Virus genome (UHGV): UHGV-0355102
From: a virus
Length of the DNA: 11,853 nt
Reading direction: 5' to 3' (one strand)
Shown here: one piece after another, positions 2,749-11,853 of the stretch
Numbering within the stretch: the stretch's first letter is position 1
Layout of the letters: each line of letters begins with the position of its first letter
Position numbers and translations under genes: made by a program
The notes under the pieces: model-generated
What the model saw: only the letters and a program-made list of their open reading frames with translations
Told to the model about the DNA's origin: nothing
Database searches by the model: none

Positions 2749-3963
2749 TCACAGCTTCACTGCGGTATCAATGGCAATCACGCCGTGATCCTGCATCTTG
2801 CCGCTCTTCTCGGGGAAACGGATTTTTTTCAGACCGTTGATCCAGCTGATTGCTATCTCAGTACGGTTATCCATATCCGTTTTCTTCTCAACCATGTTGA
2901 AGTGACCGCCGCCCTTCTGACCGTACGCATTCGCCAGCGCCTGAGCCCCCAGCAGCATGGCACGGTCGATGTTGGTTGCAGCAGCCTTTTCTGCCATCGT
3001 TGCCGTAAGGTCATTGTTCGACACCATAACCTTTGACCCCTGATAGAAACGGATCGGCATCCCCGCATACTTACGGACCAGAATATTGCGCCACATCGCA
3101 CATTCGCCTTTGAACAGCGGATGGTTAAAACCTTTTGAGCGGTTTACGGCACGCGTCATCATCTGGTTCCAGTCCTTGCCGGACGTGGAGGTGTACCAGT
3201 CATTCCACTGACGCGGCGTGACGTAGAGGACGTAATACGGATCTTCGCCATACAATTCATCACCGGACAGGCGTACCGGTTGTAACGGATGAGCCATCTC
3301 GTCAATAAACAACGAGAGATTATCGACCAGCGCAAGGGTGAACAGGTCAGACTGGTCAATACTCTCAAAACTCGTCGCATCCCCACCGAAAAAATGACGA
3401 TCATGCGTCGGCGGCAGTACGTCGTTGATCATGATTTTTTTGAATTCAGGGTGATCTGCCGTTGGCAGAATGGTGTCATCAGCAACAAAATCACCGCGGG
3501 CACCGGCAAGATGCACTATCGCACACTGGTCTTGCAGGTCGTTAAAGTACGTACCCAGCAGCGTTCTGGCAGAGGATGCCAGGTTGAACTTCGTACGCTG
3601 CTGGCTCATACGTCCGCCCGCATCCACCAGGTGACGGCCCTGATTAATTTTCAGGGAAAAATCAGCATGGCTGAGGTCTTCACCACGGCCTTCAACGCGC
3701 TCATCCCCCATCGTCGGACGTTTAGAGAGTTTGTGCATGATGCTGAACGTCACTTCATCACCGGCCTGTTTGTTGAGGTCCGTGATTCGCACAACCGGTG
3801 CACCTGCACTGGTCTGCTTCGTGCTTTTCTTGTCAGGCGAAACTGCTTTTGGTGCATCCTGCTGTTCAGTGAGAATATTCACCATCGAGCGGTTTCGGTT
3901 GGCAGCCGTGAAAAGCGCCACCTGATACAGCTTATTCGCCTGGGCTGTTGTTACTGTGGTCAT
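2749..3963 (-). CDS. Major capsid (coat) protein, putative
   Basis: 404-aa ORF with a strong GAAGGAG Shine-Dalgarno, directly downstream of an acidic scaffold-like gene in a terminase-portal-scaffold-capsid order. Size is consistent with a capsid protein. Assignment is by position and size, not a verified alignment. Confidence 0.7.
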   Translation of the reverse strand: MTTVTTAQANKLYQVALFTAANRNRSMVNILTEQQDAPKAVSPDKKSTKQTSAGAPVVRITDLNKQAGDEVTFSIMHKLSKRPTMGDERVEGRGEDLSHADFSLKINQGRHLVDAGGRMSQQRTKFNLASSARTLLGTYFNDLQDQCAIVHLAGARGDFVADDTILPTADHPEFKKIMINDVLPPTHDRHFFGGDATSFESIDQSDLFTLALVDNLSLFIDEMAHPLQPVRLSGDELYGEDPYYVLYVTPRQWNDWYTSTSGKDWNQMMTRAVNRSKGFNHPLFKGECAMWRNILVRKYAGMPIRFYQGSKVMVSNNDLTATMAEKAAATNIDRAMLLGAQALANAYGQKGGGHFNMVEKKTDMDNRTEIAISWINGLKKIRFPEKSGKMQDHGVIAIDTAVKL

Positions 3964-3985
3964 TACGTCAGTACTCCTTCAGTGG

Positions 3986-4993
3986 TTACCCGAGTTTTTC
4001 CAGAATCGCGTCAATTTCAGCGTCCGTCATGCCTCGCATGGCTGCTTCAATTTCGGTATGGGAAGCACCAAGTAACCGTTCAAAATTATCACCGGTTCCG
4101 ACGGAAGCCGTGTTGCCAAGCTCTGACGGGGAAGCAGGCACTGCCATCTCCCGTTCAGCGGCTTTCACTTTTTCTTCTGCCGTTTTCCGGATATCAGTGT
4201 TGTCTGCCTTGTCATTAGAAGGCGGCTCACTGGCTTCACCGAAAGCGAGCTGCGTACGGCGGGCCACTTCGGCGAAACGTTCAGTGAGCGGTTTGTCTTT
4301 CCATACGGGGTCATTCTGGAGCTTCCCGTCGATGGATACGGCAACCGAGAAGCGATCCGGATCGGAGTTCTGCCACGTTTTCAGCACCGGCACGTCATTC
4401 ATTGCATCAAGAACCGGTGATAAATCCTCACCACCATGACCTTCTGCCTGCTGTGCTGATTGCTGAACACGGGACTGGAGATAGTTATTTTTACGGATAA
4501 GCGAAGCCACCGCGTCACCAATTTCCGGATACATCTCCCTGATACGGGCAATCTTCTCATCAGAGATTTTTTCGTTTTCCGGTAACGGTGCGGGTTTCAT
4601 ACCGGCCTGGTGAATCTGAGACGTCAGCAGTTCAACCAGGCGTTTTTCTTCGGCTATCTGTCCCCGAAGAAGTGCGGCTTCCTGTTCGGCCCGCTGCTTA
4701 CCGGAACGTTCAGCCTCAAGGACTTCATAGGGAATGACGTGTTTACCATCGCGGGTGAGCACACCCTTCGCCTCCGGCTCCTTCACGTCCTGCGTCTGCT
4801 CAGCACTGGCATCCGGCGTCGGTGCCGCAGTGTTATCGCCCGTCTGTGTCTGTGCTGCCTCATCCGCATGATTTTCTGTGGCGGCCTCTGTCACGCCGTC
4901 CTGTTCGTGACCGTCAATATCCACATCCCCAAGTCCTTCCAGCATTTTTTCCAGTTGTTCCGGGGTTTCTTCACCCGTAAATTCAAAATCCAT
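3986..4993 (-). CDS. Scaffolding protein, putative
   Basis: 335-aa ORF between portal and capsid genes; highly acidic, Ala/Glu/Gln-rich, with a low-complexity predicted helical composition typical of phage scaffold proteins; GGAG Shine-Dalgarno 7 nt upstream of the ATG. Confidence 0.55.
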   Translation of the reverse strand: MDFEFTGEETPEQLEKMLEGLGDVDIDGHEQDGVTEAATENHADEAAQTQTGDNTAAPTPDASAEQTQDVKEPEAKGVLTRDGKHVIPYEVLEAERSGKQRAEQEAALLRGQIAEEKRLVELLTSQIHQAGMKPAPLPENEKISDEKIARIREMYPEIGDAVASLIRKNNYLQSRVQQSAQQAEGHGGEDLSPVLDAMNDVPVLKTWQNSDPDRFSVAVSIDGKLQNDPVWKDKPLTERFAEVARRTQLAFGEASEPPSNDKADNTDIRKTAEEKVKAAEREMAVPASPSELGNTASVGTGDNFERLLGASHTEIEAAMRGMTDAEIDAILEKLG

Positions 4994-5656: not shown

Positions 5657-5830
5657 GAACAGGAGCCAGCGCAATATGTGTATTTAACCTTGAAATATCA
5701 TTGGTCAGTTCACCATTATCACCTTCAGCATTGAGAACAATGGGATGTTTTCCGGGTTGAACAGGATTTTCAGGTTGCCAGCCAGCAGTTTCAGGTCATG
5801 CAGGAGTCGGAAAAACTTATCCAGGACACG
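5657..5830. repeat. Left 174-bp repeat block: two adjacent 87-bp units (5657-5743 and 5744-5830)
   Basis: 5657-5743 is the exact reverse complement of 6060-6146, and 5744-5830 is the exact reverse complement of 6147-6233. Both checked base by base at 87/87 identity. Confidence 0.9.
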
Positions 5831-10539: not shown

Positions 10540-10573
10540 AATGCCCATTTTCAACACAGACAAGGGAATTTAT

Positions 10574-11155
10574 ATGTTAAATCAAACGCTAACAAAATCT
10601 CTTCTTATATTTTTACTTGTCATAATCGTTTCTGTATCCATCATATACATTGTAAGAACTCCAGTCAGACTTGATGTGAACGATGTCACTGAGATTAACC
10701 AGAAACATCCCATTATTTTTCTCATCCGGCATGGGGAAAGATGCGATCGCTCCCAAAGAATATGTCTTTCAGCACATGAGGGAATCACAGTAAACGGAGC
10801 TAACAAAGCTCAACAATATGGAGATAAATTCAGAAGAATGTTTCCATACTACAGTCTCTATTCTACAGACACACTCCGAACAATGCAGACAGCCACTTTT
10901 TTTTCGGGAGGTAAGACAGCAACTATTCCGGACATATCGACATGTGATGATAACGCAGTAAATAATATCCTTAAAATATCAAAATCAGATCATGTTACTG
11001 TGATTTTCACACATAATCACTGTCTGTCCAGAATTGCAAAAAAAATGAATGGATGGAGATTTAAACCTGATTATATGGGCACACTGGTTCTGCATCGGGA
11101 AAATCACAATCTGATTCTCGACGGACATTTAAAACCAAACGAGCTTACCCAGTGA
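10574..11155 (+). CDS. Ais/PmrG-family histidine phosphatase (LPS core heptose(II)-phosphate phosphatase-like), exported; prophage cargo gene
   Basis: 193-aa ORF from the ATG at 10574 with AAGGGA 7 nt upstream (the track ORF starts at an earlier ATG, 10541). Hydrophobic N-terminal signal/anchor, then an RHGERCDRS motif (histidine phosphatase RHG signature) and IFTHNHCL...FKPDY, which match my recollection of E. coli Ais across most of the length. Opposite strand to the phage genes and visibly AT-rich. Confidence 0.8.
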   Translation: MLNQTLTKSLLIFLLVIIVSVSIIYIVRTPVRLDVNDVTEINQKHPIIFLIRHGERCDRSQRICLSAHEGITVNGANKAQQYGDKFRRMFPYYSLYSTDTLRTMQTATFFSGGKTATIPDISTCDDNAVNNILKISKSDHVTVIFTHNHCLSRIAKKMNGWRFKPDYMGTLVLHRENHNLILDGHLKPNELTQ

Positions 11156-11206: not shown

Positions 11207-11231
11207 AAAAAAGGCCAGCGATTGAGCTGGC
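11207..11231 (-). terminator. Intrinsic terminator after Rz/Rz1 (minus strand), possibly bidirectional
   Basis: GCCAGC - 6-nt loop - GCTGGC (11214-11231); on the minus strand the hairpin is followed by TTTTTT (plus-strand A-run 11207-11212). It sits between the convergent Rz stop (11236) and the cargo gene stop (11155). Confidence 0.5.
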
Positions 11232-11235
11232 TCTG

Positions 11236-11694
11236 TTAATCGAGGCATTGCATCCTGATGTACTCCTGCAGGTAGTTAACCTGCGCGGTTATCTTGTCGA
11301 TTCCACTTCGGAGACGGTAATAATTGAGTTCAGCATCTGCTGTAAGTCCTGAGCTTTCTCCATCGCCCATGCCGCTGGCTCCGGTCGTTGACTTTGCACA
11401 GGTGGCGGCGACTTGCAGGCGCTTACGCCCAGCAGAAACATCAGCACGGAGACTTTCAATAGTCGCGTTAGCATCAGCAAGCTCCCTGGTGTATCTGGCA
11501 TCGAGTGCAGCAACATCACGCTGGCGCTGCTGTATGTCAGCAATGGTGGCGTTCGCCTGGCTGAGTTTTGTCTTCGCATCATCTCGCTGCTCTTTGTAGG
11601 TGATGGCGTTATCACGGTAATGGTCTGTTGCCAGCCACAGCGATCCACAACCAAGCAGCAGGACAATAAGCACGCCATACAGCACACGATTCAT
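11236..11694 (-). CDS. Rz: Spanin, inner-membrane subunit (Rz, i-spanin)
   Basis: 152-aa protein from the ATG at 11692-11694 (MNRVLYGVLIVLLLGCGSLW...HYRDNAITYKEQRD...RQRDVAALDARYTRELADA...), closely resembling lambda Rz as I recall it: N-terminal transmembrane helix plus a periplasmic coiled coil. The track ORF starts 19 codons further upstream, which I do not accept. Confidence 0.9.
   Translation of the reverse strand: MNRVLYGVLIVLLLGCGSLWLATDHYRDNAITYKEQRDDAKTKLSQANATIADIQQRQRDVAALDARYTRELADANATIESLRADVSAGRKRLQVAATCAKSTTGASGMGDGESSGLTADAELNYYRLRSGIDKITAQVNYLQEYIRMQCLD
11289..11474 (-). CDS. Rz1: Spanin, outer-membrane lipoprotein subunit (Rz1, o-spanin), embedded in Rz in the +1 frame
   Basis: A 61-aa ORF lying entirely inside Rz in another frame: MLTRLLKVSVLMFLLGVSAC, a lipoprotein signal with a VSAC lipobox, followed by a proline-rich mature peptide KSPPPVQSQRPEPAAW. 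The exact start is uncertain; an alternative Met lies 11 codons downstream. Confidence 0.75.
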   Translation of the reverse strand: MLTRLLKVSVLMFLLGVSACKSPPPVQSQRPEPAAWAMEKAQDLQQMLNSIITVSEVESTR

Positions 11695-11695
11695 A

Positions 11696-11809
11696 TCACC
11701 ACCAACGGATTGCCCAGACCAGAACAGCAATTGCCACAATACGAATGGCAAAAGCTGCCGCTCTTGTTAAATCCAGACTTGCTGGCGTCTCCACCTCAAT
11801 GCCTTTCAT
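11696..11809 (-). CDS. Small single-pass membrane protein (37 aa), or the C-terminal end of a longer gene entering from beyond the right edge
   Basis: ATG at 11807-11809 with GAGG about 9 nt upstream; encodes MKGIEVETPASLDLTRAAAFAIRIVAIAVLVWAIRWW; stop 1 nt before the Rz ATG. The same frame is open to the window edge (11853), so it could instead be the tail of a longer upstream gene. The other two frames contain stops. Confidence 0.3.
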   Translation of the reverse strand: MKGIEVETPASLDLTRAAAFAIRIVAIAVLVWAIRWW

Positions 11810-11853
11810 AATGGACAACCTCAGAAAGAATCTTTTATACTTCCTCACAGGGA

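Follow-up and report, generated by a model that had tools for sequence, protein, structure and literature searches.

The window analysed here is the whole 11,853-nucleotide (nt) stretch of the UHGV virus genome UHGV-0355102, and its end (positions 11,695 to 11,853) lies directly upstream of the minus-strand spanin gene Rz. This segment carries a small gene for a single-helix membrane protein which is, with very high confidence, a separate and real gene and not the tail of an endolysin. The gene is already catalogued, as PHROG 4493 and as a RefSeq hypothetical protein, and is uncharacterised. New here are a longer product with a probable dual start, the association with a hairpin into a hairpin-plus-ORF (open reading frame) cassette, and a ribosome-binding site (RBS) for the following gene built into the ORF. 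Also new is the spread of the family over lysis, tail and head modules in phages of gamma- and beta-proteobacteria. Because it travels with the hairpin through late operons, mostly within lysis cassettes, the gene is regarded as a candidate new lysis accessory factor.

The gene between endolysin and Rz

In the window alone, the frame of the small ORF is open up to the last base, which is what speaks for taking it as the C-terminus of an endolysin, be it conventional or unusual, or of some other lysis gene further upstream. Over its final 754 nt, the window matches prophage DNA of Escherichia coli FORC_069 and about 30 other complete genomes at 100% identity, a prophage of the O104:H4 outbreak lineage at 99.9% and the Stx1 (Shiga toxin 1) phage GER2 at 99.7%, and the extension past the window was read from the FORC_069 locus (L001). 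There, an in-frame TAG (L001 5988-5990), 10 nt past the window end, closes the frame of the small ORF, and the endolysin ends at 5824, 220 nt before the ATG of the short form, with a hairpin in between (Table 1). Because of this stop codon and this separate lysozyme end, the frame is neither the end of the endolysin nor that of any other upstream gene. The ORF is, moreover, a separate RefSeq coding sequence (CDS), follows M15, GH108 and GH24 endolysins alike behind a gap, and its peptide has no endolysin match in Pfam or PHROGs. An endolysin tail thus retains a practically negligible probability.

These results bear out the first-pass annotation, made from the window's letters only, in its proposal that Rz is directly preceded not by an endolysin but by a short membrane ORF, since the endolysin is found further upstream, beyond the hairpin-containing gap. 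Its view that the segment is not an endolysin C-terminus also stands, and the sequence past 11,853 does not carry the frame on into an endolysin. By contrast, its alternative of a membrane-anchored tail of an upstream lysis gene falls with the in-frame stop and the independent CDS WP_000675931.1. Its premise that the endolysin normally abuts Rz fails in this phage group as well: the gap between the endolysin gene R and Rz is 297 nt in H-19B, and 335 nt separate the endolysin end from Rz in FORC_069. The first 156 nt 3' of the lysozyme gene, hairpin included, are common to about 320 phage records, mostly of Stx phages, and divergence sets in thereafter. The R-Rz junction of these phages is therefore a variable site and not a lambda-like overlap.

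On the minus strand, the small ORF stops with TGA (11698..11696), a single spacer base follows (11695), and Rz begins with ATG at 11694..11692. The internal ATG (11809..11807) has a GAGG (11822..11819) 9 nt upstream and opens a peptide of 37 amino acids (aa), MKGIEVETPASLDLTRAAAFAIRIVAIAVLVWAIRWW, with a hydrophilic N-terminus, one hydrophobic helix and RWW at the end. All of this is as first annotated from the window. The 37-codon extent given there stands for the short form, which coincides with the RefSeq CDS and is under purifying selection (see below), and misses a longer form of 50 aa from GTG 11848. Nor is the small ORF the only open frame upstream of Rz, as had been stated: the Rz frame itself is open for 19 codons 5' of its ATG, to TTG 11751, and so shares sequence with the small ORF in a different frame; a spurious ORF on the plus strand (11413..11811) overlaps the small ORF as well. 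Some annotations start Rz upstream (168-aa and 192-aa versions in L015/L018 and L003), by which the small gene is hidden.

A word-index search found 68 homologue clusters in E. coli, Citrobacter, Yersinia and Salmonella, several of them represented on contigs that number from hundreds to thousands. When the three enterobacterial cassette types are compared with one another, 18-20 synonymous and 3.5-6 non-synonymous changes are counted over the 37 codons; the corresponding proportions of synonymous (pS) and non-synonymous (pN) differences are 0.67-0.74 and 0.04-0.07, with a pN/pS of 0.06-0.10, and over all pairs pN/pS ranges from 0.04 to 0.18. As judged from these ratios, purifying selection on the small ORF is strong. 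Searching 1.84 billion representative proteins with a profile returned 30 proteins only, and (R/K)WW forms the C-terminal end of every full-length member retrieved. A scan of genome contigs added one locus, in Silvimonas, whose protein, used as a query, found itself only, and tblastn against the phage collection was hampered by masking of the helix as low-complexity. The small protein has no match in Pfam (E <= 1), NCBIfam or PADLOC, and no Rfam family matches the region of the small ORF.

Table 1. Positions of the small gene and surrounding features in the window and in the E. coli FORC_069 locus (L001).
Feature	Position	Strand	Remarks
Rz (i-spanin)	11236..11694	-	152 aa; Pfam PF03245 E 7.8e-37; PHROG 13 E 7.7e-69
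Rz1 (o-spanin lipoprotein)	11289..11474	-	+1 frame inside Rz; lipobox LLGVSAC; PHROG 3198 'Rz-like spanin' E 1.4e-28
Terminator-like hairpin	11214..11231	.	between Rz and convergent phosphatase gene; GCCAGC..GCTGGC, then T-run; equals L001 6623-6640
Small membrane-protein gene, long form	11696..11848	-	GTG start; 50 aa and TGA; MRKYKRFFLRLSIMKGIEVETPASLDLTRAAAFAIRIVAIAVLVWAIRWW
Small ORF, short form	11696..11809	-	internal ATG; 37 aa; equals RefSeq CDS WP_000675931.1
GAGG, Shine-Dalgarno sequence of the internal ATG	11819..11822	-	within Leu-Arg codons of the long form
C-terminal transmembrane helix with internal Arg and terminal RWW	11699..11761	-	AAAFAIRIVAIAVLVWAIRWW
Trp-Trp-stop codons GGTGGTGA	11696..11703	-	double as Shine-Dalgarno-like sequence 1-5 nt before the Rz ATG
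Class II holin	L001 5071-5286		
GH24 lysozyme (endolysin)	L001 5291-5824		hydrophobic N-terminal segment
Gap from endolysin to ATG of the small ORF	L001 5825-6044		220 nt
Terminator-type hairpin in the gap	L001 5915-5947		15 bp; flanking A- and T-runs
37-aa CDS 'hypothetical protein'	L001 6045-6158		WP_000675931.1
Rz	L001 6160-6618		

On the other side of Rz and convergent with it, the window (10541-11155, plus strand) encodes a 204-aa Ais/PmrG-like lipopolysaccharide (LPS) core heptose(II)-phosphate phosphatase (NCBIfam NF011945, E 7e-60). The gene lies between the lysis and the terminase genes, which is the site of bor in lambda, and is likely a lysogenic-conversion gene whose product could modify the host LPS.

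Start codons, probable isoforms and predicted membrane topology

The small gene likely yields two isoforms, of 50 aa from GTG 11848 and of 37 aa from ATG 11809, each behind a Shine-Dalgarno (SD) sequence of its own. The 13 codons opened by the GTG read RKYKRFFLRLSI (net +5). A former interpretation of the 37 nt before the ATG as a non-coding leader, these being near-invariant in enteric bacteria and frameshifted in Citrobacter, was overturned by distant homologues. The peptide (K/N)YKRFF(L/M)RL(S/T)(I)M is conserved in Silvimonas terrae, in the PHROG 1115 paralogue of PhiR5_2 and in L105, L106, L110 and L114; S. terrae keeps KYKRFFLRL behind a TTG start, with the Arg codon changed from AGA to CGC and both Phe codons swapped. 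ATG starts occupy the long-form position in five lineages, namely PhiR5_2 (ATG MEKYKRILLRLTM...) and the metagenomic phages L105, L106, L110 and L114, and the GTG is replaced by ATG in the enterobacterial variants L060 and L101. The 50-aa form also matches the profile of PHROG 4493 (unknown function) from its first position (1-54 of 56, E 1.4e-24), a match much stronger than that of the 37-aa form (E 5.5e-16); weaker matches are PHROG 1115 and PHROG 3246. Since distant homologues conserve the peptide with synonymous changes and ATG starts, the GTG has given way to ATG, and the PHROG profile covers the extension, the 13 upstream codons are taken to be coding.

The internal Met is kept in most lineages, with GAGG or GAGA 7-9 nt upstream. 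Pairing of this internal SD with the anti-SD has an energy of -6.3 kcal/mol here and of -5.6 to -6.3 kcal/mol over the lineages, compared with a mean of about -0.5 kcal/mol for synonymous recodings. In 8 of the 10 lineages having the internal Met, including the independent L023, L106 and L110, an equally good SD arises in just 0.2-3% of such recodings. The Arg codon supplying the SD is AGG or AGA in every lineage, whereas other Arg codons in the GC-rich loci are mostly CGN. All this points to selection on the internal SD at the nucleotide level. In the Citrobacter lineage, a 1-nt deletion destroys the long frame, and the short form is kept and still under purifying selection. The SD of the long form, GGGAGG, lies just past the window end and can pair with TCCCT directly before the GTG in a stem of 5-6 bp (L001 5991-6008); shorter equivalents of this stem occur in the versions associated with M15 and GH108 endolysins. 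The enteric SD-sequestering stem is reminiscent of the lambda sdi structure, which sets the S107:S105 ratio.

The last 21 residues form the sole hydrophobic segment (Kyte-Doolittle 15-residue means of 2.0-2.6), and the AlphaFold2 model is one long helix with a predicted local distance difference test (pLDDT) score of 94-96 in this segment, so that hydropathy and model agree on a single C-terminal transmembrane domain (TMD). The extension MRKYKRFFLRLSI has a net charge of +5, and the linker MKGIEVETPASLDLTR has a net charge of -1 and carries the family motif G(L/I)E(L/V)xxP; this acidic linker is conserved and reads KGIEVETP.... The residues F, I, R, R, W and W are invariant in the alignments A3 and A4. 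By the positive-inside rule, the small protein is predicted to be tail-anchored in the inner membrane, with the N-terminus in the cytoplasm and at most three residues in the periplasm. Overall, it belongs to an uncharacterised phage family with a basic N-terminal stretch, an acidic linker, a C-terminal TMD containing a buried Arg, and a terminal RWW. An i-spanin-like role is excluded because at most three residues would face the periplasm: an i-spanin combines an N-terminal TMD with a periplasmic coiled coil, whereas here the TMD is C-terminal with three residues after it, and Rz itself is the next gene.

The hairpin cassette and its genomic contexts

A GC-rich hairpin stands 40-95 nt 5' of the long-form start in 9 of the 10 representative lineages folded, its stems differing in sequence from lineage to lineage. 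The exception is the prophage remnant L111, where the upstream flank is replaced by a chromosomal gene; two Pasteurellaceae loci appear, by inspection, to be hairpin-bearing too. The distance from the stop of the small ORF to the start of the next gene, where there is one, is 0-3 nt, whether this gene is Rz, an ORF for a 60-aa lipoprotein, a PLD-like gene, a baseplate gene or an endolysin. The codons TGG TGG TRR then form an SD-like element; in the window, TGG TGG TGA would act as the RBS by which translation of Rz is coupled to that of the small ORF. Since RWW is retained where no gene follows (unit 1 of L105, and L110), it is selected at the protein level too.

Homologues near Rz in other prophages were found in several lysis cassettes, in some of them before Rz. 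In E. coli, one type comprises holin_8, holin_3_7 and an M15 peptidase followed by the hairpin, the ORF and, in place of Rz, the 60-aa lipoprotein ORF; in Yersinia, holin_8, holin_3_7 and a GH108 endolysin precede the hairpin, the ORF and Rz/Rz1. The arrangement of the window, with a class II holin, a GH24 lysozyme, the hairpin, the ORF and Rz, is shared by E. coli and Citrobacter. Silvimonas has a GH24 lysozyme, the hairpin, the ORF and the PLD-like gene, and in a prophage remnant present in three 4.5-4.7-Mb genomes the ORF is still joined to Rz. In the metagenomic phage L114, the ORF takes the classical holin position, in overlap with the start of a GH24 endolysin that has an N-terminal TMD, and no recognised holin stands beside it. 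In L105, three hairpin-led units 3' of the capsid gene are followed by a GH24 endolysin; the units contain two family paralogues, a PHROG 920 holin (in ATGA overlap with one of the paralogues) and a 32-aa ORF ending in RWW. Taken together, 7 of the 11 independent contexts are lysis cassettes, with four endolysin families and the ORF before or after the endolysin, and 4 are tail or head modules; in two of the lysis contexts, the ORF is translationally coupled to a holin (L105) or an endolysin (L114). Judging from this distribution, the hairpin and the small ORF behave as a mobile cassette of late operons in phages of gamma- and beta-proteobacteria, which can be accommodated at intergenic sites without polar damage. 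In enterobacterial lambdoid prophages, the cassette is placed between the endolysin and Rz.

The three hairpins of L105 (positions 3437-4406) are near-identical (CAAACGCCCCGGCAGTTnGCCGCTGCCGGGGCGTTCTG), each leading one or two small TMD ORFs. They are far more alike than the ORFs behind them, which suggests homogenisation or a sequence-specific role. In the E. coli M15-type cassettes, which are very common, the 60-aa lipoprotein ORF (L007 4116-4298, L005 2116-2298) has the lipobox LLVGC and three Cys in its 30-aa mature part, and belongs to PHROG 7528 of unknown function. No recognisable spanin was found near the small ORF in these two cassettes, and a mini-spanin made of the small peptide and the lipoprotein is ruled out, the peptide having no periplasmic domain. 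On the Silvimonas terrae chromosome (L023 2122-3851), the ORF lies in an isolated mini-island flanked by ordinary membrane-protein genes and containing a 97-aa TMD/coiled-coil protein, the GH24 lysozyme, the hairpin, the small ORF and the PLD-like protein; this island could be what is left of a prophage, or else a lysis-type module that was domesticated.

Other small ORFs occupy the same site. In H-19B (L006 2201-2296), a different 32-aa single-TMD ORF of PHROG 6632, MAEKLSTWKFILIWLVFVIMASGYFIGQIRWW, ends with IRWW-TGA-A-ATG(Rz), and its likeness to the ORF of the window is confined to this C-terminal IRWW-stop-ATG(Rz) junction, which looks like recombination within the tiny genes between R and Rz. 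In the phages vB_EcoS-569R3 and PhiR5_2, the R-Rz interval holds between two and four small TMD ORFs (PHROG 6632, 4906, 1115 and a 28-aa version of 4493). Different small single-TMD ORFs of PHROG 6632, 4906 and 1115 thus fill this gap in other Stx/lambdoid phages (H-19B; L003 612-1175; L104 1435-1763), and the last member of the L105 array is a PHROG 6632-like ORF. Being found together both in R-Rz gaps and in the L105 array, the small membrane proteins of these PHROGs travel together.

A possible role in lysis, rival readings and related systems

The reading preferred here, although held tentatively, is that of a late-expressed, tail-anchored inner-membrane lysis accessory or timing factor. 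A holin/antiholin-like or lysis-regulatory function, as already surmised from the window's letters, is plausible and is favoured by the genomic context and the probable dual start. The gene would be transcribed together with the late and lysis genes, and its product would insert N-in/C-out into the cytoplasmic membrane late in infection and act there at the lysis step, whereby the two isoforms may act as a dual-start pair of the holin/antiholin type and the 3' end of the ORF would supply the RBS of Rz. The effect might be a generic one on membrane energisation or holin triggering, or else the conserved cytoplasmic motif might bind a conserved component of the host membrane. Late expression is deduced from the coupling in L105 and L114, because a private lysogenic promoter there would drive a holin or an endolysin and be lethal; in addition, the stretch from the hairpin to the small ORF yielded no sigma-70-like promoter on the sense strand. 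Like a holin, the small protein of the lysis cassette has at least one TMD, a single C-terminal one, and is encoded between the endolysin and Rz. That the family represents a class of mobile lysis-timing regulators, with dual-start isoforms, a topology opposite to that of classical holins, a fit to any cassette and an RBS carried along for the next gene, is a bolder proposition and an improbable one at present. On this proposition, the protein itself could be a depolarising 'pinholin' in cassettes of the L114 type, where the ORF precedes a membrane-tethered endolysin.

Several observations weigh against a role in lysis. Four contexts lie outside lysis cassettes: in L106-L109 the ORF stands between baseplate spike and wedge genes, in L110 after capsid and Bbp16-like genes, in Aggregatibacter phage S1249 within a tail/baseplate module, and in Pasteurella phage Pmp2 as two tandem ORFs of the tail region, both ending INAIRWW. 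The charged region is N-terminal and RWW comes straight after the TMD, in place of the charged cytoplasmic C-terminal tail expected of a holin, and none of the models for holins, antiholins, releasins and spanins in Pfam, PHROGs and NCBIfam matches the small protein. The dual start is not a universal feature, the internal Met being absent in Pasteurellaceae members. Many related Stx phages have no small ORF, or have other small ORFs or longer inserts at the site, for which reason the gene is dispensable. A full-text literature search returned no paper mentioning the protein. Moreover, the family is found alongside unrelated holins and endolysins of four families, which makes a partner-specific antiholin unlikely; a releasin-like role specific to membrane-tethered signal-arrest-release (SAR) endolysins was likewise ruled out by the family's occurrence with M15 and GH108 endolysins.

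The most serious competitor, though rather unlikely, is a late-operon 'moron-like' accessory membrane peptide unrelated to lysis, which would serve superinfection exclusion or modulate a host inner-membrane protein, acting through the conserved cytoplasmic GLE(L/V)xAP motif and the Arg-containing helix, with the lysis-cassette sites being tolerated insertion sites. HK97 gp15 is a small inner-membrane moron product which confers superinfection exclusion. Such a peptide would fit the variable positions in baseplate, head, tail and lysis modules, the cassette-like nature with a terminator-type hairpin and tandem duplicated units, and the independence of holin and endolysin type. The R-Rz gap is, besides, a known variable site holding other small ORFs too, and the strongly conserved linker motif suggests a specific partner over generic membrane damage. 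On the other hand, the predominance of lysis cassettes (7/11) and the coupling in L105 and L114 to a holin or an endolysin, by which private lysogenic expression would be lethal, argue against it. The hairpin lies upstream of the ORF, whereas classical morons have it downstream; with no sense promoter found between the two and the next gene starting 1 nt after the stop, the organisation is not that of a moron in the sense of Hendrix, which has a promoter of its own on the 5' side and a terminator on the 3' side and is expressed from the prophage.

A selfish module resembling type I toxins, in which a membrane toxin peptide would be combined with a cis-antisense RNA of about 95 nt masking the SD of the long form, is considered very unlikely. 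The antisense RNA would run from a promoter within the 5' codons to the hairpin acting bidirectionally. Indeed, the plus strand has a sigma-70-like match (10/12), made up of TGGACA (11812-11817) and TATACT (11836-11841) with 18 nt between them and aimed at the hairpin some 95 nt off; similar antisense matches occur in Silvimonas, L104, L106 and L114, the hairpin has T-runs on both sides with the antisense side often the better one, and the module is mobile and tandemly duplicated. Toxins of the Hok, Ldr and TisB type are similar to the small peptide in size and hydrophobicity. However, 18-31% of synonymous recodings score equally well as an antisense promoter in the enteric lineages, the match is absent in L105, L110 and L111, and the region has no excess of promoter-like sites relative to shuffles (4 versus 1.9 +/- 1.2 expected). 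Because the match is no better than in synonymous recodings of the same peptide, the idea of an antisense promoter and small RNA (sRNA) was demoted, and the match is probably incidental. There is also no Rfam family match and no toxin match in Pfam or PADLOC, and toxin-antitoxin modules are not characterised by a tight coupling of translation to late genes behind them. The published prophage sRNAs (AgvB/AsxR, Pas sRNAs) map to other sites. With type I toxins (Hok, Ldr, TisB) and HK97 gp15, the protein of the window shares the size of 30-60 aa, a single hydrophobic helix, the prophage location and mobility; no homology to either was found, and it differs from them in having no supported antisense RNA, no private promoter found and a coupling to late genes.

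That the ORF is a functionless translated leader, keeping the mRNA open and bringing ribosomes to Rz across a terminator-containing gap, is highly improbable. A stop followed after 1 nt by ATG, and the SD-like GGTGGTGA, would suit such a leader, and the same geometry recurs before unrelated downstream genes. A leader would not account for purifying selection at the amino-acid level, which extends over gamma- and beta-proteobacteria, nor for the invariant F, I, R and RWW, the last retained without a following gene. A role of the small ORF in translational coupling is probably real but secondary.

Lysis by phages of Gram-negative bacteria is usually described in three parts: holin, endolysin and spanin. 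Mu releasin and LambdaSo Lcc6 illustrate that further small membrane proteins, readily missed, can be indispensable. The present family occurs on thousands of prophage contigs of E. coli, Citrobacter and Yersinia, including the prophage of the O104:H4 outbreak lineage. If its members tune lysis timing, phage burst size would be affected and, in Stx phages, toxin release too; the hairpin, dual start and built-in RBS would be a compact example of how accessory genes are inserted into operons without polar damage. If they are not lysis factors, they are still widespread membrane peptides, expressed late and sharing a conserved motif on the cytoplasmic side, whose partner would be worth finding.

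By sequence, PHROG 4493, 1115 and 3246 and WP_000675931.1 belong to the same family, with the RefSeq CDS equalling the 37-aa form; none of these entries has a function assigned, and neither a dual start nor a hairpin cassette nor the spread over modules has been described for them. Among functionally related systems, Mu gp25 releasin is reported to be a small single-TMD protein outside the holin/endolysin/spanin triad and required for lysis (PMC9239132). Lcc6 of the Shewanella phage LambdaSo is a 65-aa protein with a single TMD (residues 5-22) and a cytoplasmic C-terminal part, required for lysis at the holin step (bioRxiv 10.1101/2024.01.23.576932). Both are, like the protein of the window, small single-pass inner-membrane proteins outside the triad. 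Where endolysins are membrane-tethered (SAR), as in these two systems, they are needed for, or modulate, the step of lysis that takes place at the membrane. The cassette of the window likewise combines a class II holin with a lysozyme having a hydrophobic N-terminal segment; the window's family, in contrast to these systems, also pairs with endolysins that have no such segment (M15, GH108). Lcc6 is set apart by its described architecture, its TMD being N-terminal, the reverse of the present protein, and by a gene far from the lysis genes; releasin is annotated as DUF2730, whereas the protein of the window has no Pfam match at E <= 1.

The dual-start holin/antiholin genes of the lambdoid phages lambda (S107/S105) and 21 (S71/S68) resemble the window's gene in encoding small lysis-cassette membrane proteins and, given its probable dual start, in two in-frame starts, each with an SD, and in the extra N-terminal positive charge of the longer product (+5 in the present case). 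Moreover, the enteric versions of the window's type have a small stem able to sequester the upstream SD, like lambda sdi. The present protein has no sequence similarity to these holins and differs from them by its one C-terminal TMD, with essentially no periplasmic or C-terminal charged domain, and by a spacing of 13 codons between the starts as opposed to 2-3 in the dual-start holins of lambda and phage 21. Unlike these pairs, it stands in a cassette which already holds a bona fide class II holin.

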